Shown piece by piece: positions 1 to 44,712 of a DNA stretch of 47,146 nucleotides; position 1 is the stretch's first letter, and the number at the start of each line of letters is the position of its first letter. The stretch is from the UHGV virus genome UHGV-1361989; one strand, 5' to 3'. Source of the stretch: a virus. Made by a program: the position numbers and the translations under genes. Under the pieces are notes generated by a model. The model saw nothing but the letters and a program-made list of their open reading frames with translations, ran no database searches and was not told where the DNA came from.

Positions 1-1785
1 CTGCAAAGTGAAGTTGATGCACTTCGTGAGAGGTATCTTAGCTTCACTCCTGCCGCGCAAGAGGTGGCTGAGTCACTTGGTCAAGGGTCGCAATTTGCTT
101 CTGATCAGGAAAGGGTGCTCAATGAATTAAATAAAAAATCAAGAGATTTAGCTGATGCTCAGGATAAACTAGCAAGAACTCAGGACACGGCAGCAGAAGC
201 AAGCAGAACCCTAACAAACAACATGCTTACCTCAATGGGGGTGCACGATGGTCTGATTGAGAAAGGCTCGACTCTTGAGAGAGTGCAGGGGGCGGTGGCA
301 AGAGCATTTGGATTGACTGCCGATGAGATAAACAGAGCAAACCAAGCCGGGCAAAACTTCAACCCCAAATCCTTGCAGGTGTCAGCCCCAACAAAAGAAG
401 CTGATAAGATGATTCTCAGTCTTGAGGAGCAGAATCAGCTTTTAAAAATACAGGATGAAAGACAGAGGGCGGTAACAAAAGCACGACTGGAGGCCCAAAA
501 GGTAACTGATAACCCCAATCAGATAGCCAGGGCTGCTGAACTTGCAGGACAGATATATGATTTGAATGAGGCCGAGAAAGCAAGGGAAAAATCGCAAAAT
601 GATTCTCAATCAGCGGCCCAAAAAGCCGCCACAGAGCAGGAGAATATCGCTAATAAACTTGAGCAGTTACGACAAGAATCCTTATTAACAGCAGATAGCA
701 CAAAAGAGCTATCCCGCGAGCAAGCAATACTACAGGCTCAACAATCACTAGGAAAAGGCGCTACAGAGGAGCAAATAAGACTCGCTGGAGAGTACAAGGC
801 TAAGGCATGGGATAATGCCAACGCGATAAAGGCTCAGGCAGAGGCGGAGAAACAAAGGGTAGAAGCTGTAAAAGGATTCGCTGCATTAAAATCGCAGACA
901 TCACCAATGTTTGCCGTTGAAACAAACTATCAGAAGGATTTAGCAGCGCTCAATGCTTATGCGGTGGCTTACCCGCAAAAGATAGCGGAGGTTGAGCAGG
1001 CCAGAGCAGCAATTGAGGAGCAATACCGCCAGCAGCGCCTCGATGCCATGTGGCAGGAGTGGAGCCAGCAGAACGCGGCCACACAAGCGGCCGCTGCTGC
1101 ATTTGATGCTTTTGGGCAAACCGCAAGCAACGCCTTAACTGGCGTTCTGACTGGCTCAATGTCTGTTAGCGAGGCGCTACAGTCAATAGGGAGTAATGTG
1201 TTAAATGCGGTTATTAACTCCTTCGTTCAGATGGGCGTAGAGTGGCTTAAATCGGTAATTATGGGACAGGCAGGGATGACTGCGGCATCAGGGATGGCTG
1301 CAGCCCAAGCCCAAATAATCGCAGCGGCTATGGCGCCAGCAGCAGCGATGACATCACTTGCTACGGGTGGCGCTAACGCAGTACCTGCACAGGCTGGCAT
1401 TGTTTCCACCGTCGGTGTGGCTAAAGCAATGTCTGTTGCCGGGGCATTAAAGAATGGCGGCCCTGCGCAGGCTGGATCAATGTATCAGGTCGGCGAGAAC
1501 AACCTACCTGAAATCTTCCAGGCCAGCAATGGCAATCAGTACATGATACCTGGCGACAATGGAAAGGTTATAAGCAACAAAGACCTTACCGGTGGTGGCA
1601 GTGGTATCATTATTTATAATAATGTCACCAATAACAGCAGCGGAGCAACGGCCTCATCAACAGCAAGAGATAATGGTGACGGCTCTGTTACAATTGAGAC
1701 TATCGTTGCCGACATAGAAAATGGCGGCCCTATTTCTCAGGCTATTACCAGCAACACTACTGCAACCAGAAGGGCAACAGAATAA
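1..1785 (+). CDS. tail tape measure protein, C-terminal part (reading frame enters from before position 1; contiguous in frame with ORF leaving window at 47146)
   Basis: Open frame from nt 1 with no stop until 1785. Ala/Gln-rich coiled-coil repeats followed by Gly/Ala-rich hydrophobic segment. Sits immediately upstream of minor tail genes. Confidence 0.75.
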   Translation: MQSEVDALRERYLSFTPAAQEVAESLGQGSQFASDQERVLNELNKKSRDLADAQDKLARTQDTAAEASRTLTNNMLTSMGVHDGLIEKGSTLERVQGAVARAFGLTADEINRANQAGQNFNPKSLQVSAPTKEADKMILSLEEQNQLLKIQDERQRAVTKARLEAQKVTDNPNQIARAAELAGQIYDLNEAEKAREKSQNDSQSAAQKAATEQENIANKLEQLRQESLLTADSTKELSREQAILQAQQSLGKGATEEQIRLAGEYKAKAWDNANAIKAQAEAEKQRVEAVKGFAALKSQTSPMFAVETNYQKDLAALNAYAVAYPQKIAEVEQARAAIEEQYRQQRLDAMWQEWSQQNAATQAAAAAFDAFGQTASNALTGVLTGSMSVSEALQSIGSNVLNAVINSFVQMGVEWLKSVIMGQAGMTAASGMAAAQAQIIAAAMAPAAAMTSLATGGANAVPAQAGIVSTVGVAKAMSVAGALKNGGPAQAGSMYQVGENNLPEIFQASNGNQYMIPGDNGKVISNKDLTGGGSGIIIYNNVTNNSSGATASSTARDNGDGSVTIETIVADIENGGPISQAITSNTTATRRATE

Positions 1786-2741: not shown

Positions 2742-3146
2742 ATGACTGGAAAGCCATACGTTGACAGATGTTGTCATGTTGATGCAGTGGACTGCTGGGG
2801 TCTGGTAGTGCTGTTCTATCGTCTTTGCATGAATGTTAATGTCCATCATGATGATTCATATTCAAATGGCGGCGATTTTGTCACTTGTTTCAATGGAGAA
2901 ATTTCATTCTGGAAAGACACAGACCGGCCAAAAATTGGCGATGTGGTGGTTGCATATCGCGGGAGTCACCCGGTACATGTCGCGCTGTGGTGGGGTCGTG
3001 ATAAAATACTGCATGCGCGAGAGAAAACGGCAGTCAAGACAGACCGCCTTAAAACACTCGAAAAATTATCAACAAAATTAAGGTTCCTGACTTATGCCGG
3101 TTATTCACATTCAGAAGATGCCAGGTGTTCCAAAAGAGACGGGTAA
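2742..3146 (+). CDS. tail assembly protein K-like, NlpC/P60 peptidase fold
   Basis: Motifs DCWGLVV (Cys) and HVALWW (His) typical of NlpC/P60 / gpK. ORF-track start 2667 trimmed to the ATG after the upstream stop. Confidence 0.6.
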
Positions 3147-5574
3147 TGTTCCTGCTGGCACTAATCTGTGGAGATGGCTGGAGAATTCCGGTCTTCCATC
3201 TGACATCAGGATTGCACTGAATGGCCGCATTTTTGGCCCTGATGATGAATTGTCGATATCGTTAAAGCAAAACGATATTGTTAACATTTACTGTCAGCCT
3301 CGCGGCGCCATTGGCGACCTTATCAGCACGATACTCAAGCCTGTAACTAAGGTTCTTTCTTTTCTGCTGCCAAAAGCATCAACGCCATCAACCAGCACTG
3401 GCACGACGGTTGAATCACCCAATAACAGCCTGAAATCGCAAACCAATATTGCGCGAAATGGAGAGGCAAGACCTGACAACTTCGGTCAGATAAGGGCATT
3501 CCCTGACCTGATTCAGGAATCTCTTTTTGAATACATTGACGATTTGAAGTACGTCACAGAGTTCATGAATTTTGGCCTTGGGAAATACACCATTTCATCG
3601 GTTAGATATGCAGAAACAAACCTCGGGTCTTTACCCGGTGCCACTCATGTCATCTACAATCCAGGTGATGTGATAGGGCAAATCATTGAGCCTTACCAGT
3701 TCGACGGACTTGATGGTCAGGAGGTTTTAGGGCTAAACGAGTCAGAAGATACCCCGATAGAGACGGCAACCACAACATCTGTTACCAGTGGGAATTATGC
3801 TGGCGGTCAGCTATTAATGGTCATACCAAAAAACACTGATTTCGATTACTTTATGGGACTATCTTTGCCTCACTCCGTATCATTAACAATAAATATTACC
3901 TACAACTCTACATCAGGGCCAGTTACTGAAAACATTCAGCTTAGTGGCAACATCATTTCAGCTGAGGAAACTGAGACAGGCGTCATTCCTGATATTCAGT
4001 ATTTTTATAATTTCACATTCAATAACCTGACTGGCGCAAATCTTGGCAACCTGACAGGCGCAACCATCAACAACACTTATTTCCAGATTGTGGATAATGA
4101 GGCGCTTGTTGTTGGCCCATATGTTGGAGCTGTGGAATCAACGCAGGTATGGGTTCATGTTCAGTCTGAGCTTGGTCCTACCAGTGGCACGGCAGATTAC
4201 CTGATCAAGGTATGGGCGGTTGATGATAATGGGGATGCCATTCCAGGAACCGAGGAGCAGCTTGCAGACAGTATTGACAACCCATTCAATCAGACAACCA
4301 AAACCTATTATCGCACGTATAAGTTAACTCCTGCTTATGGGTTGGCTAAGTATGCCATCAGCATTGAAAGGACAAACAACTCAAACTCTGGCAACCGCGT
4401 AACGTTGCAGGCGGCGCACGCCATCAACATCCGCGAGAATGTAGTTTATCCTGATGACACCCTTGTTAAAGTCACGGTGAAGGCCACGCTTCAGCCCACA
4501 TCAGTTACTGAGCGCAAATATAATGCGCTGATCACCCGCTGGACTATCGGATATAACAGAACAACCGGGACAGTAGACTATACGTTAACACCATCAAGAA
4601 GTTTTGCAGATTCAGTGCTGCATAACTGGCTTATTACTGCTGGTCAGCCTGAAAGCACGATTGACGTGGGAAGATTATATGAAATAGCTGATGCGCTGCC
4701 TGATGAGCGTCTTGGGTACTTTGATTACACCTTTGACGATGAGGATAAGTCCATTGGTGAGCGAATCCAGACCATCTGTGATGCCGCTCGCGTAACTGTA
4801 TTTTGGGATGATGGCGTCTTGTCTTTCTCAAGAGATGAGCAAAAATCAACCCCTGAAACTGTGTTTAATACCAGAAACACGCAGGCTGATGGCTATAAAA
4901 TGTCTTATGACATGACTTTGCCAGGCTCATATGATGGCGTAAGCGTTCAGTACCGTGATCCAAACACAAACAAGCAGGCTTACGTTTATTATAAAGTTGG
5001 GGCATCTGGTATCGAACCTGGAGAGCCAACTAAGCCGAAAAAATTCGACATGCTATATGTTCGAAACCTGTATCAGGCAACAGACAGGGCTATGCTTGAA
5101 TGCAATCGCCTCATGTACTCTCGTCGTGGAATGGAGATAAAAGCGCTTGCCGATGGAGAGTGGGTGAACGTTGGCGATATGATTTCTGTTGTCGACATTT
5201 ATGATTCTGTACAGCAGACTGGCGTTATCCGATCAAGGTCTGGAAACGTATTTACCACCAGTGAACAGCTCACAGCAGGAAGCGGCCTGTTTGTGGTCAT
5301 CACTGGCGCCAATGGGAATGTGTCAGAACTCCTGGCTTGTACCGTTACTGGATTGAATACATTCGAGTGCGCATTACCATCTGATTTCGAGTTAAACATT
5401 TTTGACGGTGTTAATGTTCAGTCAGAATCAAGATATGCCATCTCCACAGAGGTTGAGCTTGATTCAACATTATGGACAGTCAGCCAGAAAACTCCAGGCA
5501 CAGATGGTACAGTCTCACTTACTGTAACTGAGTACAATGATGCCATGTACGCCTACACCAACCCTGTTGCATGA
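3094..5574 (+). CDS. distal tail / central tail fibre protein (lambda J-like), N-terminus with gpI-like beta-grasp segment
   Basis: 826 aa, Thr/Asn/Gly-rich beta-structure. Position after K-like gene. RBS aagg upstream of ATG 3094. Confidence 0.55.
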
Positions 5575-5603: not shown

Positions 5604-7769
5604 TTGCAGCCGATGGCTACTACCCCAACTAACAAGCCAATTCCTTCTGAAGACCCGCGCGACCTCAAGTTTAACGCCGGTAAGATTGATGAAGAGGTTA
5701 ACGGAAGTTCTGATTACTACACCGACCGATTTGACGCACAGAGGCTGACTAATACCGGCAGGAATCACCAGTTTCAGACAGCACAAGATGAGCGTGAGGC
5801 AGAATTTGTTGCGTCACAGGTGGATAAAGAAGCGCGTTTTCAGCAATTCCTCTTAAATTCTGGTTATCAGTTTTTGGGAGATTATGAAAATGGGCCATAT
5901 ACAATAACGGCGCTTAACCAGGTAATTCGTTATCAGGGTGAATTCTGGCGCTTAAACGCATCAACAACACCTCCATATACAACTACAGGGATTGATAACA
6001 CCTCTTGGGCGGTAGATGTGACCCATCTTGTAAGCGTTGGTGATGCAAAATTAAGACAGGATTTAAGTTCAACTACTTTGCCTGGTTTATCATTAGTCGG
6101 TCTTTCTGGTAATGGTAATTTAAACCATCTGCTAGGCAATCATACCTCTCCTGAGGCGTGGGGAGTGGTGCCAAATTCAGAAGCATCAGCTCATGCAAAC
6201 TCTAGAAAGATGTTTGACATGTTTGAAAGTTTAAGATCGAAAGGCGGCGGTGTCGTATTCTTTACTCCTGGTAGAACATACTGGATTGACTTTATTCAGT
6301 TCGTACCAAGTAACGTTGTTATAATTGGCTACGGCGCTACATTAAAGCAAATAAACCCTTTATCAATGTATGGACGCGGTGGTTTTGTGTTTGGTAGCAG
6401 TAGGGAATGGAACTATCAAAAAGCTAAAACGGCATATCTTGCAAACTCCTACCCTGCATCTGTATCTGATTCATCAATGCCTGAGTTGTCTTTAGGTTCA
6501 TATTTAAGGGATAACCAATCATATTTACAGTGTGAAAGATGTACTGTGTATGGTTTGCGTATGGAAACAAAATTTACAGATTCTACATATTGGGGTGGTT
6601 ATGCATTTAATACAGTAAACGCGCAACACATCAGATTTTACGATGTTAAAGGAAGTGGTTGGACACAGCTATTCAATTTCGGTAATGATAGTTCCGCATC
6701 ATCACCATCTTGTGATGATGTATATGCATTCAACTCAACAGTAGAAAGCGCAGATCTTGTTCGTTCTTACTATGCGATTGGTTTTATAGCCAACTCTACA
6801 AACTGTGGTTTTGATACAGCGGTTCTTCTAAAACCAATGACAGTTGATAGCATTAATGGGTCTGGTGCAGCAACAAACCACACTGAAAACTGCGTAATCA
6901 GAAATATAAACATACCAGATTTAGGGTTAACTTCATCATCTGAAGGTGTTTTATTAAATAACTCTAAAGGTTGTTTAATAGAAAATATTGATATCAGGAA
7001 TTGTAAAAACGTAGTTAGTACATACTATACCGTCGATTCATACAATGACACTGCAAAACCTAATATTTTAAGGAATATTAGTGGTCAAGGCGTTAACATT
7101 ATAGCAATCAGGTCTAAATATGCACACATTGAATCATTTGAAGGAGTAGGTACATACACGAATGAAGTTCAATTTGCAAACAACAATGCATCAGGCAATA
7201 CCATAAATAAAAAACCAAAATCAATTGGTTTTGGTGGGACTAACTTACAGTCATGGTTTTTAACAAATAATACGGTAAAAGGATGGTCGCGAAAATATTT
7301 TTATATTCGGCCATCCGAAATTTTGTTGAACGATAAAGTAGACACTTTTTCATGGAATTATAATAAACTTGTCGCAACAAAATCAGGAGTAAATCTTTAC
7401 TTTATGTGGCGAGTTCCTGACGATATCAATGCAATTGATGATATTCGCGCTTTTATTAGATTTAACACTGCCGTAGATCAAGATGCTTCTGTTGCTGGAT
7501 CTACAGTAGAGGCAAGTTTGATACAAATGGTCGCTTTCGATGGTAACATTGGTGAAACACCATATGTTGCTTTTTCAAACAGCAAGATTGCAACAGCGGG
7601 TGTAGAAGACACAACGGTAGTAACGCAAATGGGTAGCAATGTACCAGGTTTGGTTTATATGGATGATACTACACATGGTTTATCCTATAGCTGGTATGTG
7701 CTGTTTAAAATGACAAATAATGTCAACAATAACTACATGAAAGAAATCAGAGTAGCGGGGTATAACTAA
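5604..7769 (+). CDS. tail fibre / tailspike with beta-helix receptor-binding domain (possible polysaccharide depolymerase)
   Basis: 721 aa. Conserved-looking N-terminal anchor, then Asn/Ser/Gly/Thr-rich repeats typical of right-handed beta-helix. Coding DNA is markedly AT-rich relative to rest of genome. Confidence 0.55.
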   Translation: MQPMATTPTNKPIPSEDPRDLKFNAGKIDEEVNGSSDYYTDRFDAQRLTNTGRNHQFQTAQDEREAEFVASQVDKEARFQQFLLNSGYQFLGDYENGPYTITALNQVIRYQGEFWRLNASTTPPYTTTGIDNTSWAVDVTHLVSVGDAKLRQDLSSTTLPGLSLVGLSGNGNLNHLLGNHTSPEAWGVVPNSEASAHANSRKMFDMFESLRSKGGGVVFFTPGRTYWIDFIQFVPSNVVIIGYGATLKQINPLSMYGRGGFVFGSSREWNYQKAKTAYLANSYPASVSDSSMPELSLGSYLRDNQSYLQCERCTVYGLRMETKFTDSTYWGGYAFNTVNAQHIRFYDVKGSGWTQLFNFGNDSSASSPSCDDVYAFNSTVESADLVRSYYAIGFIANSTNCGFDTAVLLKPMTVDSINGSGAATNHTENCVIRNINIPDLGLTSSSEGVLLNNSKGCLIENIDIRNCKNVVSTYYTVDSYNDTAKPNILRNISGQGVNIIAIRSKYAHIESFEGVGTYTNEVQFANNNASGNTINKKPKSIGFGGTNLQSWFLTNNTVKGWSRKYFYIRPSEILLNDKVDTFSWNYNKLVATKSGVNLYFMWRVPDDINAIDDIRAFIRFNTAVDQDASVAGSTVEASLIQMVAFDGNIGETPYVAFSNSKIATAGVEDTTVVTQMGSNVPGLVYMDDTTHGLSYSWYVLFKMTNNVNNNYMKEIRVAGYN

Positions 7770-36499: not shown

Positions 36500-37588
36500 A
36501 TGGAAAAGATTATCTTTACGAAAGGCCTGATCACCAACTCGCAGGTGGTCAGAGAGCAGTGGCGCCACCTGACTGTTGACCGCAAGGTTTTCATCAATGG
36601 TGAAAACGCTCTGGCGAAAGAATACGGCGTGAACGCCACCGCACTGGTAACGAAAGACTACTGGCGCGAAGTGGACGATGTGACCACCCGTGTCTTCCGC
36701 AATGAGTCCGGCATGGACATGATGGCCGACCTGATGACGCTGGCGACCAACATCAACATCGGCAAGACCGTGGCAATCAGCCGCATGGCCTCCGATGCTG
36801 GTAAGGTTGTGCGCACCATCTCCGGGCAGGAGCCTGAAGACCTGGATAAAACCCGCTACTCCTACAGCGGCGATGTAATCCCGATCTTCAAAACCGGTTA
36901 TGGCCGAGAGTGGCGCGAGCTGCTGGGTATGCAATCTGAAGGTTTCGACCCGCTGATTGATGACCAGGAAAACACCACCTTCAACCTGCGCGCAGACATG
37001 GCGGATTATCTGCTTGTCGGCGATGCAAGCCTGAACGTGAACGGCGTTTATACTGCTTACGGCATCACCAACCACCCGAACACCGTGCAGCTTAACCTGA
37101 GTGCCTCCGGCACTGGCGCGCTGAACATCGACCTGCAAACTGCAACCCCTGATGAAATCGTTAAGTTCTTCAACCAGGATTTCCAGGCGGTTCTGGATAC
37201 GCAGAACGTGTTCGAGCCGGTTACTCTGTGGGTTTCTCCGGCCGTGCGCCGATCCTTCAGCCGCCCGTACTCCAACGCGGCAGGCTTCAAAGGCGGCACC
37301 ATTGAGGATTATATCCTCGCATTCGGCAAAACCGGCAACGTTGGCCGCATCGCGTCTATCGGCACCAACTTCAAGCTGACCGGGAACCATTTCGTCGGCT
37401 ATGTGAAGAATGCGCTGTATATCCGCCCTCGCGTCGCTCAGCCGGTATCCACCTATGCAGAGCCGCGTACCACGCCGCACGCTAACTTTAACTTTTTAAC
37501 GTGGGCTGCTATGGGTTTGCAAATTCGCCGGGATTTCTCGGGCCGAAGCAAGGTGTTCAACGGCTACGGCACGCAAACCGCGCTGTAA
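36500..37588 (+). CDS. major capsid protein (HK97-fold, lambda gpE-like size)
   Basis: 362 aa. Strong RBS aggagccgaacaATG. Followed by strong terminator. Confidence 0.8.
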   Translation: MEKIIFTKGLITNSQVVREQWRHLTVDRKVFINGENALAKEYGVNATALVTKDYWREVDDVTTRVFRNESGMDMMADLMTLATNINIGKTVAISRMASDAGKVVRTISGQEPEDLDKTRYSYSGDVIPIFKTGYGREWRELLGMQSEGFDPLIDDQENTTFNLRADMADYLLVGDASLNVNGVYTAYGITNHPNTVQLNLSASGTGALNIDLQTATPDEIVKFFNQDFQAVLDTQNVFEPVTLWVSPAVRRSFSRPYSNAAGFKGGTIEDYILAFGKTGNVGRIASIGTNFKLTGNHFVGYVKNALYIRPRVAQPVSTYAEPRTTPHANFNFLTWAAMGLQIRRDFSGRSKVFNGYGTQTAL

Positions 37589-41961: not shown

Positions 41962-42378
41962 ATGGCCGCCAAAATGCGAGGTATCCAGCAGGCTATTAAG
42001 CGCACTCAGCAGATAGTCGGCGAGATTACTGGTGAAAAGGCTGTGCGGGCCATAAAGAGCGCCAACTTTATTATCCGTACTGAATCGGCTTCTATGACAC
42101 CAATAGCCACATCAACACTGATAAATAGCCAGTATGACACCGTTGAGGTTAAAGGCACTCGCATAACCGGCAAGATTGGGTATGCTGCCAATTACGCACT
42201 GTATGTCCATAATGCACCTGGCACATTGCTGGGTACAAACACGCCACGCACAGGACGGCTCAAAGGGAAGGGAAATGTATGGGATAAGAGCGGCGAGCCT
42301 AAATTCCTTCTCAAGGCTGGCGAAAACACACGCGAGCTTGTCGATCAGGTAATTAAAAAAGAGATGACGCTAAAATGA
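41962..42378 (+). CDS. neck/tail completion protein (HK97 gp10-like position)
   Basis: 138 aa, synteny. Confidence 0.4.
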   Translation: MAAKMRGIQQAIKRTQQIVGEITGEKAVRAIKSANFIIRTESASMTPIATSTLINSQYDTVEVKGTRITGKIGYAANYALYVHNAPGTLLGTNTPRTGRLKGKGNVWDKSGEPKFLLKAGENTRELVDQVIKKEMTLK

Positions 42379-42758
42379 GAGATATGCTTGAGCTTGTTGA
42401 CCAGTACCTTAGCGACGCCCATCTTTATGACGGGTGGACTAATCAGCTTGAGTTCTGGAACGATAGCGAAGTTGGCACCGAGCGCTTTATGGTGCTGCAA
42501 TCCAATGGCGGCACGAGCGTAAGCAAAGGACTCGGCGGAGATTACTATTTCTCGCTCTATGTTGTCGGCCAGCAGGGTCAGTACAATATCAAGGAGACAA
42601 AAGCAAAAGCGCTTGATGTCATCTCATATATCAAAGAGCATCCCGTTGATAGTTGTATTGGCATGATTCAGTTGCAGGCGCCGCTTGGTCGCCCTACGCT
42701 TACGACAGAGCAGAGGCCGGTTTATGAATTGTTGCTGAGGGTTGTTTTTGGTGAGTAA
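42375..42758 (+). CDS. tail terminator-like protein
   Basis: 127 aa, ATGA coupling. Immediately before tRNAs and major tail. Confidence 0.4.
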   Translation: MRDMLELVDQYLSDAHLYDGWTNQLEFWNDSEVGTERFMVLQSNGGTSVSKGLGGDYYFSLYVVGQQGQYNIKETKAKALDVISYIKEHPVDSCIGMIQLQAPLGRPTLTTEQRPVYELLLRVVFGE

Positions 42759-42836
42759 TGGTTACCGCGACAGGATTCGAACCTGTAATCATCCGATTAT
42801 GAGTCGGGTGCTTTAACCAGTTAAGCTAAACGTGAG
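42759..42836 (-). tRNA. tRNA-like gene, anticodon CAU (Met/Ile2-type) with imperfect acceptor stem, possible pseudogene
   Basis: Reverse complement has D-arm GCTT/AAGC, anticodon loop CTCATAA, T-arm ACAGG TTCGAAT CCTGT and 3' CGCGGTA-A-CCA. The 5' strand TCACGTT pairs at only 4 of 7 positions. Confidence 0.4.
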
Positions 42837-42838
42837 TT

Positions 42839-42916
42839 TGGTGCACCATACTGGATTCGAACCAGTGACCTACGGATTAGAAGTCCGTTGCTACTATCCT
42901 GCTGAGCTAATGGTGC
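42839..42916 (-). tRNA. tRNA-Arg (anticodon UCU)
   Basis: Reverse complement GCACCAT...ATGGTGC-A-CCA acceptor, anticodon stem ACGGA/TCCGT, loop CTTCTAA, T-arm ACTGG TTCGAAT CCAGT. Confidence 0.8.
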
Positions 42917-42933: not shown

Positions 42934-42962
42934 AATCTACACCACCAATAAAAACCTGTCAA
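42934..42962 (-). promoter_or_regulatory. tRNA promoter TTGACA-17-TAGATT
   Basis: Reverse complement TTGACAggtttttattggtggtgTAGATT directly upstream of tRNA-Arg. Confidence 0.5.
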
Positions 42963-42964
42963 CA

Positions 42965-42973
42965 TGATATAAT
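42965..42973 (+). promoter_or_regulatory. extended -10 promoter TGaTATAAT upstream of major tail gene
   Basis: Read directly. RBS agagga before ATG 43008. Confidence 0.5.
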
Positions 42974-43007: not shown

Positions 43008-43763
43008 ATGGCTATTTGTACAAATGATAACGGCATCATCACAGGTCGCCAGTCTCTCATTGAGCTGGCTGATGGCTGCTGGGATGCTGTGCCAGCAGAG
43101 GAAGACTGGAAGTTTTTTGCTCCCATGACCTCAAAAGGCGTCGACTTCAGTCCAAGCACCACCACTTCAGAGGCTGATGATGGCGATGGCTTTGTTGCGA
43201 CGCTGGTCACTACCGCAGACCTCACCATTTCTGGTGATTTCGAAGTTCGCAAGGCTGACAAGGCTGATGAGTATGGCGTGCATAACCTCATCAAATACTT
43301 TGTCACCGAAGTAAAAGCGCGTCGACAGCCGTCGCTGTGGGTTCGTCAAACGACTGGTAACACCGTCGTGGTAGCTTACTGCAACATCACCGCGCTGAGC
43401 TACGATGGCGGCACCAACGACATTATCACCGGCTCAGTTGAATTCAAGCCGTATGATGGCTCTACCGTTGACGTGTCCAGCATCGAAGACCTGACGCTGA
43501 CTACTGATATCAACCCAACCCTGAGCGTTGCTTCCGGCTCCGCTCTGACGCTCGGCCCGGTAGTTGCGGCTGGTGGTGTCGAGCCTTACACCTATCAGTG
43601 GTATAAAGGCACCACCCCAATCAGCGGCGCGGCATCCGCCACCTACACCAAGCCTACGGCGGTAGCGGGCGACGCTGGCACGTACTTCTGCCGCGTGACG
43701 GACTCGGCAACCAGTCCTGATTACGTTGAATCCACCAGGTGCGTTGTTACCGTTACGTCATAA
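43008..43763 (+). CDS. major tail protein with C-terminal Ig-like domain
   Basis: 251 aa. C-terminus YTYQWYKG...TYTKP...AGTYFCRVTD is an Ig (Big_2/I-set-like) signature. Strong terminator follows. Confidence 0.7.
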   Translation: MAICTNDNGIITGRQSLIELADGCWDAVPAEEDWKFFAPMTSKGVDFSPSTTTSEADDGDGFVATLVTTADLTISGDFEVRKADKADEYGVHNLIKYFVTEVKARRQPSLWVRQTTGNTVVVAYCNITALSYDGGTNDIITGSVEFKPYDGSTVDVSSIEDLTLTTDINPTLSVASGSALTLGPVVAAGGVEPYTYQWYKGTTPISGAASATYTKPTAVAGDAGTYFCRVTDSATSPDYVESTRCVVTVTS

Positions 43764-43969: not shown

Positions 43970-44230
43970 CTATTCCTCACTAATCGCAGCATCAAGCTGG
44001 CGTCGCAACATGCACAGCGCACCGCGTGGCATTGCCTGGCGACTCACGCCGTCGAAAATCTTCCGGTTGAGGTGATTGGTCACTCGCGGCCTGATAGCCT
44101 GCCAGCACGCCTTAATGCTGCCATTTACCGGGCGGCGCTCGAGCATGGCGAACTTTGCAGATAGTTCCAGCGTCACCAGTGCATCAAGGTATTGCTCGCA
44201 GGCATAGCGATTTTCGTTATCCATCATCAT
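43970..44230 (-). CDS. hypothetical protein
   Basis: 86-aa ORF coupled to HNH gene. Confidence 0.4.
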   Translation of the reverse strand: MMMDNENRYACEQYLDALVTLELSAKFAMLERRPVNGSIKACWQAIRPRVTNHLNRKIFDGVSRQAMPRGALCMLRRQLDAAISEE

Positions 44231-44712
44231 TTACCATGGTTCTCATGAAAATCATACTTAACCTCCGCCTTTCTCCTTGCTTCAGCGGCCATATTTAAGT
44301 CAGAAAACAATCCAAGATGAATCTTTACGCCATCAACTTTTATGTTTGAGGCCCATTTTTTATGTTGTTTATCCCATGAAACACCAGTAACACCTGATTT
44401 GTTTGTCACCCTGAACTTCATGTTGTGATTATTCTCTTTTGGAGTGACAAGCCTGAGGTTATCTATCTTATTGTTTGTTTTATTGTGGTCTATATGATCA
44501 ATCTGCATTCCGTCAGGAATTTTCCCATTATGCATTTCCCAGATGATGCGATGAACAAGATACTTGACGCCATAGATTCCAACAATCTTATATCCATTGC
44601 CTCCTACCGCCTTCACCTCGCTTCCGATTTTCACTCTGTTTGAGGTTCTTATCTTCCAGTAAATAGCCCCATCACAATAATAAAAAATATCTGACCAATC
44701 AGTTATTTTCAT
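44227..44712 (-). CDS. HNH homing endonuclease with AP2 domain
   Basis: IDHIDHNKTNNKIDNLRL + SGVTGVSWDKQHKKWASNI + NHGK. Confidence 0.8.
   Translation of the reverse strand: MKITDWSDIFYYCDGAIYWKIRTSNRVKIGSEVKAVGGNGYKIVGIYGVKYLVHRIIWEMHNGKIPDGMQIDHIDHNKTNNKIDNLRLVTPKENNHNMKFRVTNKSGVTGVSWDKQHKKWASNIKVDGVKIHLGLFSDLNMAAEARRKAEVKYDFHENHGK

Follow-up and report, generated by a model that had tools for sequence, protein, structure and literature searches.

A two-tRNA cassette with a degenerate tRNA(CAU) allele in a Roufvirus-like Klebsiella phage: probable recent damage to a dispensable codon-supply gene

Background

Next to an intact tRNA-Arg(UCU) gene, in the middle of late structural genes, this phage DNA carries a tRNA-like element with anticodon CAU and a disrupted acceptor stem. 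The locus raises the question of whether this element is a tRNA gene on its way to loss, a tRNA that works in spite of its mismatches, or something else, and which codon it would read. An earlier note on the same DNA had proposed a decaying tRNA-Met/Ile2 gene, a recombination scar in which the 5' half had been replaced, or a tRNA-like processing or regulatory element. Here the locus is compared with its relatives; "the window" means the whole stretch that was analysed, 47,146 nucleotides long.

Methods

tRNA genes were searched for with ARAGORN and with Infernal and the Rfam tRNA model (RF00005). An initial pattern scan of IMG/VR demanded exact D and T arms and was hence biased. In its place, contigs were selected by the phrog_782 protein encoded next to the cassette, so that the tRNA sequence itself had no influence on the choice; this gave 35 contigs. 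With the window and ten GenBank loci these make up 46 sources. The E. coli sequences used for comparison, ileX and metT, occur with 100% identity in 5424/5426 genomes, where they are annotated as tRNA-Ile and tRNA-Met, respectively.

Results and discussion

Layout of the cassette

Two genes are read from the minus strand, tRNA-Arg(UCU) and then the CAU element, below a putative promoter (Table 1). The order, the strand and the motif TTGACA-17-TAGATT are as the earlier note had given them, and a promoter consensus scan counted 10/12 matches for the motif. It presumably drives the cassette, with a leader of about 17 nt between TAGATT and tRNA-Arg(UCU). Since all three flanking genes are on the plus strand, the cassette is antisense to the late operon; the CCA of the CAU element is followed directly by the phrog_782 gene's stop codon, read as its reverse complement.

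The canonical fold claimed for tRNA-Arg(UCU) was borne out by both ARAGORN and Rfam, and its acceptor pairs have predicted probabilities of 0.82-1.0. The CAU element had been said to abut the CCA of tRNA-Arg with no spacer and to extend to 42836. Neither holds: three nucleotides, AAC, separate the two genes, and 42836 is one base too far, being a base of the spacer. In most relatives the spacer is AAT, as against AAC in the window.

Table 1. Features of the cassette, its neighbours and the genes counted for AGA and AUA codons
Feature	Position	Strand	Basis and details
Promoter TTGACA-17-TAGATT	42934..42962	-	putative, sigma-70-type; TTGACA 42962-42957, TAGATT 42939-42934
tRNA-Arg(UCU)	42839..42916	-	78 nt with encoded CCA; canonical cloverleaf; ARAGORN; Rfam RF00005 64.2 bits
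Spacer AAC	42836..42838	-	3 nt, from the CCA of tRNA-Arg to position 1 of tRNA(CAU); sequence read
tRNA(CAU)	42759..42835	-	77 nt with encoded CCA; degenerate allele; 42762-42835 without CCA; Rfam RF00005 48.2 bits
C3A (tRNA sense)	42833	-	breaks pair 3:70; only in the window and KpnS_VR6602
G71U (tRNA sense)	42764	-	breaks pair 2:71; common to a small clade (L033, L035-L037 and L076)
Tail completion/Neck1 protein gene	41962-42378	+	phrog_5
phrog_782 gene	42375-42758	+	a phrog of unknown function
Major tail protein gene	43008-43763	+	phrog_853, E 5e-92; AGA 0, AUA 0
Extended -10 motif	42965-42973	+	precedes the start codon of the major tail gene (ATG, 43008) by 35 nt
161-aa ORF	44227-44712	-	HNH-type motif
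ORF with tape-measure match	64-1785	+	phrog_1107 positions 645-1249
Tape-measure gene			AGA 11, AUA 13
Tail gene	3094-5574		AGA 9, AUA 9
Tail gene	5604-7769		AGA 9, AUA 10
DNA helicase			AGA 4, AUA 13
DNA primase			AGA 6, AUA 9
Virion structural protein	36500-37588		AGA 1, AUA 0

The CAU element

Against RF00005 the CAU element scores 48.2 bits (gathering score 29, E 2.4e-07) over the entire model (1-71 of 71), and in the Rfam search tRNA was the sole family above threshold for it. Infernal uses the boundaries of the earlier hand fold, whose register is thus upheld; ARAGORN, run on the window, reported tRNA-Arg alone, made no call for the CAU element and offered no other fold. Alternative registers and boundaries for the acceptor stem were tried and none pairs better. 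A chance match was ruled out by conservation at the same position in dozens of related phages.

The D stem is GCTT/AAGC with GG in its loop, the anticodon loop CTCATAA has U33 and a purine at 37, and the T arm ACAGG-TTCGAAT-CCTGT is followed by A-CCA; these are the features of a tRNA, and all of them had been described correctly. So had the acceptor stem. Its strands, 5' UCACGUU and 3' CGCGGUA, pair at 4 of 7 positions, through three Watson-Crick pairs (U1-A72, C4-G69 and G5-C68) and the wobble U6.G67, while C2.U71, A3.G70 and U7.C66 are mismatched. The seven-pair acceptor stem of an RF00005 tRNA is therefore lacking, and the Rfam model flags non-standard pairs at 2:71, 3:70, 7:66 and 27:43.

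With a permissive threshold, the reverse complement of the CAU tRNA in relatives also gave matches to the Rfam Plastid-ycf2 5'UTR RNA, at L002 1265-1339 (-) and L066 2387-2461 (+). At 36.9 and 32 bits they lie below the gathering score of 65.7, and are taken as chance or tRNA-derived similarity.

Relatives, family consensus and the two substitutions

Fifty-eight phage records match the 501 bases that surround the element, and most of them annotate tRNA-Arg and tRNA-Met at the locus. The best of them, KpnS_VR6602 (99.2%), carries an identical CAU allele annotated as tRNA-Met, and tRNA-Met/Ile(CAT) genes have been reported for the proposed Roufvirinae (PMC11769527). Judged by its sequence, the window is a Roufvirus-like Klebsiella siphophage, and the gene, being already annotated in relatives, is in itself an ordinary finding. 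In the Roufvirus-like phages KpnS_VR6602, VLCpiS13f, BUCT541, KlebP_265, pYD38-A and pIS4-A the CAT genes are 95-100% identical and lie, as in the window, between the phrog_782 and major tail genes, on the same strand, with the same promoter and the same partner tRNA-Arg(UCU). The window and KpnS_VR6602 differ from the others in having C3A and G71U, and hence 4/7 instead of 6/7 acceptor pairs.

Copies of intact length were found in 36 of the 46 sources, the window included. The family consensus is TCCCGTT TA GCTTAACTGGTTAAAGC A CCCGA CTCATAA TCGGA TGATT ACAGG TTCGAAT CCTGT CGCGGGA A CCA, in which the acceptor stem TCCCGTT/CGCGGGA forms 6/7 pairs, five of them Watson-Crick and one the U6.G67 wobble, with U7.C66 mismatched. 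From this consensus the window departs at exactly two positions, G71U and C3A. Four contigs (L033, L035-L037) have G71U alone, with the AAC spacer and the downstream flank of the window; an ENA contig (L076), which may be a duplicate assembly of one of these IMG/VR contigs, has G71U as well. Both changes are found together in the window and KpnS_VR6602. Since contigs with G71U alone exist, the history runs from the consensus to G71U and from there to G71U plus C3A, by stepwise point mutation. From these comparisons it is almost certain that the CAU element is the orthologue of a conserved tRNA(CAU) of Roufvirus-like Klebsiella phages, and that two point mutations account for the difference between the window allele and the consensus.

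Damage in the window allele

The Rfam score drops from 60.4 bits for the consensus to 53.4 for G71U and 48.2 for the window, other single mutants scoring 55.1 (C4A) and 52.0 bits (C2A). ARAGORN calls the consensus and G71U alleles and misses that of the window. The predicted probability of acceptor pairs 1-6 is 0.76-1.0 in the consensus, at most 0.1 in G71U and 0 in the window, where the stem is left with three consecutive pairs and an isolated U1-A72. The cloverleaf has an energy of -19.6 kcal/mol in the consensus, -12.7 in G71U and -10.2 in the window, against minimum free energies of -21.4, -17.4 and -17.4, and in the G71U and window alleles the minimum-energy fold is a competing structure, the cloverleaf not being preferred; these energies ignore tertiary contacts and modifications, and E. 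coli tRNA-Met was mis-folded too. Compared with the conserved orthologues, C3A and G71U are disruptive and uncompensated, as changes in a decaying gene would be. From the models, the window allele would rather probably be impaired in function.

Several phages carry the G71U single mutant, so they must at least tolerate a C2.U71 mismatch. Around the tRNAs, a block of 375-520 nt is nearly the same in the window, KpnS_VR6602 and L035-L037, with only 1-2 differences; the genes flanking it are mosaic, and the major tail gene is about 10-12% different. With so few differences in the shared block no rate can be inferred for the mutant alleles, and neither relaxed nor continued selection; the mutant alleles are simply young.

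Conservation of the family and its distant homologues

Across 33 loci the nucleotide diversity of the tRNA is 0.017. For third, first and second codon positions of the adjacent gene the values are 0.145, 0.032 and 0.021, which means that the tRNA evolves about 8 times more slowly than the third positions. In the family alignment the D arm is invariant and the T arm variable at one site; together they have 1/34 variable sites against 15/43 elsewhere (p = 0.0005). Eleven of the 16 variable sites fall in the acceptor and anticodon stems (11/24 sites, against 5/53 others; p = 0.0006), and the acceptor stem taken alone has no significant excess (6/14 against 10/63; p = 0.06).

We also evaluated whether stem changes were compensated. 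In an alignment of 19 alleles, 1:72, 3:70 and 49:65 have changed on both sides with pairing kept, and the covariation score was above all 500 shuffles and all slid controls. Within the Roufvirus group no acceptor-stem variant is compensated: C2A, C3A, C4A, G69A and G71U each disrupt one pair, and 7:66 is still a mismatch in the C66U variant. Most of these variants are singletons, as expected of slightly deleterious polymorphisms. The neighbouring tRNA-Arg alleles, in contrast, have one acceptor stem with rare exceptions, and whole anticodon stems have been swapped in them with full compensation.

Two kinds of homologue lie outside the group. Escherichia phage Pollock (Schitoviridae) has a tRNA(CAU) that is 94.8% identical over 77 nt, has the same anticodon arm and D stem as the window family and shares the U7.C66 mismatch, but has U6-A67 and stands in an unrelated genome and context. 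Since an unrelated schitovirus has the same tRNA(CAU), the gene appears to have been shared horizontally. In Pollock it is part of a Pro-CAU-Arg-Leu array (L080 518-847; KM236242.1 64673-65002); the record KM236242.1 lists the four tRNAs on the complementary strand, while ARAGORN, with identical coordinates, has them on the forward strand. The RothC type has an anticodon arm and D stem identical to those of the window family, but differs in a fully paired acceptor stem (GTTCGCA/TGCGAGC), in a flipped 49:65 pair, in being annotated tRNA-Ile and in its unrelated context. The D loops of both homologues differ from that of the window family by 1-3 nt. The RothC-type tRNA occurs at L081, L082, L084-L092 and L094-L101, in Klebsiella phages and in contigs whose identifiers suggest isolate prophages; in the phages it adjoins the antiterminator Q gene. 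A bacterial source was searched for with the exact 32-nt core, from the end of the D arm to the start of the variable loop, with 0 hits in one genome each of 185,579 species. Taken together, the low diversity, the conserved arms and the compensated changes in homologues indicate that the CAU family is a working tRNA.

Gene loss and cassette instability

Concerning the 35 protein-anchored relatives, ten have no intact CAU tRNA, four having Arg/CAU chimeras and six a 3' remnant of 23 nt. The chimeras (L034 and L046, 2385-2462; L053 and L059, 2385-2461; all on the minus strand) run from the 5' end of tRNA-Arg(UCU) to its T loop, and the remainder (3' strand of the T stem, acceptor strand and CCA) is that of the CAU gene; they would have arisen by deletion between two copies of the T loop, GGTTCGAATCC, which is the same in both tRNA genes. 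ARAGORN calls none of the four, and L034, the one chimera run against Rfam, gives a partial match of 36.3 bits. The remnants (L038, L039, L048, L055, L057 and L058, at about 2609-2632 on the minus strand) consist of the last 23 nt of the CAU tRNA, TTCGAATCCTGTCGCGGGAACCA. At five of these loci, L055 being left out, the remnant is preceded by unrelated sequence and followed by a small ORF and a terminator-like hairpin.

In other relatives the Arg-CAU pair is separated from the promoter by further genes: tRNA-Ser(GCU), tRNA-Thr(UGU) or small ORFs. TTGACA-17-TAGATT is kept beside the major tail gene in most relatives, some of them without the tRNAs. Because the promoter stays where the tRNAs have gone, the slot behaves as a variable, promoter-equipped accessory cassette, of which the window has the minimal form. 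By this pattern the CAU gene is dispensable, and the phage group gains, scrambles and loses the cassette freely.

A "tRNA-Gly(UCC)" at L003 1524-1601, in Klebsiella phage VLCpiS13a, is plainly derived from the 78-nt Arg(UCU) allele by a change of the anticodon from TCT to TCC. Its D stem (TATCTC for TAGCTC) and acceptor strand (GGTAC for GGTGC) are altered as well, and it may be a degenerating or re-assigned copy.

Decoding identity

An initiator tRNA-fMet has a C1xA72 mismatch and three G-C pairs at 29-31/39-41. The phage tRNA has U1-A72 and the anticodon stem CCCGA/TCGGA, with no GGG/CCC, by which an initiator is excluded. Overall identity is uninformative between the other two candidates, with 53/77 positions shared with ileX and 52/77 with metT. 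Enzyme determinants are more specific. TmcA, which marks tRNA-Met, needs C27-G43, C30-G40 and G44, while TilS, the enzyme that marks tRNA-Ile2, recognises C4-G69 and C5-G68 in E. coli, with U4-A69 and A5-U68 acting as antideterminants (PMC2500205); BcTilS uses 3:70 and 4:69 instead (PMC11947777).

At these positions the phage tRNA has C27.A43 (unpaired), G30-C40, U44, C4-G69 and G5-C68. Of these, C4-G69, G30-C40 and U44 are as in Ile2; no feature is fully of the Met type, and neither E. coli tRNA has G5-C68 or C27.A43. By the E. coli rules for TilS, C4-G69 is present and 5:68 is G-C, not C-G. The TmcA determinants are absent and the Ile2-type G30-C40 and U44 present, as in an Ile2 tRNA; none of the determinants of elongator tRNA-Met (C27-G43, C30-G40, G44, U4-A69/A5-U68) was found. 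The E. coli tRNA-Ile2 (ileX/ileY), which is lysidine-modified and reads AUA, has, like the phage tRNA, a CUCAUAA loop with CAU, A73, C4-G69, C29-G41/G30-C40/A31-U39 and U44, and differs from it in C5-G68 and G27.U43. With E. coli tRNA-Met (metT/metU) the phage tRNA shares the CAU loop, A73, the length of the D loop and a near-identical T arm (16/17), in which it is unlike tRNA-Ile2; unlike tRNA-Met, it is without all three TmcA determinants and without U4-A69/A5-U68. When it is compared with E. coli genomes, the top hits are tRNA-Ile genes carried by plasmids of about 48 and 90 kb, a size typical of phage-plasmids, and the RothC-type homologue is likewise annotated tRNA-Ile.

These comparisons make Ile2, reading AUA, the likely identity of the CAU tRNA in preference to elongator Met. 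The label "tRNA-Met" in the GenBank relatives may rest on the anticodon alone; for the family it is probably wrong, Ile2 being the likelier label. A survey with tRNAscan-SE 2.0 labels the CAT tRNAs of Roufvirinae as Ile or Met (PMC11769527).

Codon demand

In 69 greedily chosen ORFs of the window (13,551 codons) AGA is used 11.1, AGG 8.0, AUA 12.8 and AUG 27.1 times per 1000 codons, and the remark of the earlier note that AGA/AGG supply is a known phage strategy fits the count for AGA. Enterobacterial hosts use AGA about 1-2 and AUA about 3-4 times per 1000. In the window AGA and AUA are concentrated in the genes for tail proteins, the helicase and the primase, and hardly occur in the major tail gene or the virion structural gene (Table 1). 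K. pneumoniae has about 57% G+C and the phage about 47%, with 36-54% in 2-kb windows. The relative KlebP_265 has 48.07% (PMC11769527). The tRNAs added in relatives are Thr(UGU), for the A-ending codon ACA, and Ser(GCU), a pattern that would fit AUA better than AUG as the codon served by the CAU gene.

Competing readings of the locus

In our preferred reading the CAU element is a dispensable tRNA gene for codon supply, present in the window as a recent and probably crippled allele; for this statement as a whole, including orthology, the two mutations and the lean towards Ile2, we estimate a probability of roughly 0.6. Of the proposals in the earlier note, it is the decaying tRNA-Met/Ile2 gene that finds support, since the element is an orthologue of a conserved tRNA(CAU) in which C3A and G71U break pairs, and further backing comes from the single-mutant intermediate in some relatives and the complete loss in others.

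The cassette would be transcribed by host RNA polymerase from its host-type sigma-70 promoter as a dicistronic precursor, Arg(UCU) before CAU, in which host RNase P would cut each 5' end and 3' exonucleases trim each 3' end. The two tRNAs would supply codons that are frequent in a phage of about 47% G+C and rare in its G+C-rich host: Arg(UCU) would read AGA, and the codon of the CAU tRNA would most likely be AUA, once host TilS has modified it with lysidine, or, less likely, AUG as an elongator Met. G71U and then C3A have opened 2:71 and 3:70 on top of the family-wide U7.C66 mismatch and U6.G67 wobble, and the window allele may be poorly processed or charged, or inactive, an early stage of a loss that elsewhere was completed by deletion. 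The tRNA clusters of phages T4 and T5 consist of tightly packed tandem tRNAs a few nucleotides apart, Arg(UCU) and CAU among them. The presumed processing of a multimeric precursor by RNase P and the supply of rare codons would be common to them and the window cassette, which is unlike them in having two genes only, in lying antisense in a late structural operon and in its host-type promoter.

The most serious alternative, which we consider unlikely, is that the double-mutant allele still functions as a tRNA, if perhaps as a hypomorph, and is held together by tertiary contacts, RNase P, the synthetase, EF-Tu and its intact arms. Its 48.2 bits are well over the Rfam gathering score, every other arm is identical to the consensus, U7.C66 and C27.A43 are tolerated in every copy of the family, that of the unrelated Pollock included, and single acceptor mismatches (C2A, C4A, G69A) segregate in relatives. 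The double mutant is also present in two independently sequenced phages; these, however, share the allele in a very recent block, so that its persistence is no proof of fitness. It should be noted, moreover, that the stem retains three consecutive acceptor pairs, interrupted by a 2x2 internal loop, that predicted acceptor pairing is 0 and the cloverleaf 7 kcal/mol above the competing fold, and that no acceptor-stem variant has a compensatory change. A variant of this idea, which we hold very improbable, is that a weak acceptor stem is a selected property of the phage tRNA(CAU) family and the window allele an extreme but functional case. U7.C66 and C27.A43 are indeed conserved across Roufvirus-like siphophages and the schitovirus Pollock, and at positions 2, 3, 4, 69 and 71 other mismatches of the acceptor stem have arisen repeatedly and independently. 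If the weak stem were selected, it might let the tRNA evade a host enzyme by which the stem is recognised, or shift the partition between TilS/IleRS and MetRS, and with it decoding towards AUA, AUG or both.

A non-decoding role seems still less probable. The element might serve as a handle for processing the 3' end of tRNA-Arg, as a decoy for a host tRNA-targeting enzyme or, as its reverse complement, as structured RNA that spaces the phrog_782 and major tail genes in the late mRNA. The greater conservation of the D and T arms than of the acceptor and anticodon stems, the conserved U7.C66 mismatch and the antisense position inside the late operon would agree with such a role. The anticodon loop, discriminator and encoded CCA are, on the other hand, kept as in a decoding tRNA, stem changes are compensated in the RothC-type homologues in a different genomic context, many relatives are without the element, and tRNA is the only Rfam family above threshold; for the regulatory or processing element of the earlier note we found no evidence in favour. 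Replacement of the 5' half by foreign sequence, also proposed there, is contradicted by the alignment and has hardly any probability left. The cassette is recombination-prone, as the four T-loop chimeras and the six remnants illustrate, but positions 1-65 of the window equal the consensus except for C3A, the second change lies on the 3' strand, a single-mutant intermediate exists, and spacer, tRNA-Arg and promoter are collinear with those of relatives. A sequencing or assembly error as the origin of the mismatches is practically negligible, since both bases are also found in the independently deposited KpnS_VR6602 genome and G71U in the four IMG/VR contigs and the ENA contig, even if the latter duplicates one of the four.

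Significance

The value of the preferred reading, a damaged allele of a dispensable tRNA gene, is mainly for annotation, with little significance beyond it. Gene finders disagree on the window allele, which is a false negative for ARAGORN and is found by Infernal with the Rfam tRNA model. The locus is also a small natural series of tRNA decay, with the consensus, a single mismatch, a double mismatch, a T-loop chimera and a 3' remnant, which could be used to test how much acceptor damage RNase P, TilS and the synthetases tolerate and what rare-codon tRNAs carried by phages are worth in fitness.

Other features of the window

On the plus strand a perfect extended -10 motif, TGATATAAT, adjoins the -35 box of the tRNA promoter in the opposite orientation, and the same bases are present in the relatives inspected. 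The promoter scan did not list it because its -35 hexamer is weak. The motif suggests that the major tail gene has a host-type promoter of its own.

Just beyond the major tail gene, the 161-aa ORF on the minus strand contains an HNH-type motif (...HRIIWEMHNG...IDHIDHNKTNNKIDNLRLVTPKENNHN...) and is probably a homing endonuclease; its region varies between relatives. The ORF at 64-1785 matches just the C-terminal half of tape-measure profiles, from which it follows that the genome is probably circularly permuted and that the window begins within it, so that the tape-measure gene is divided between the two ends of the window.
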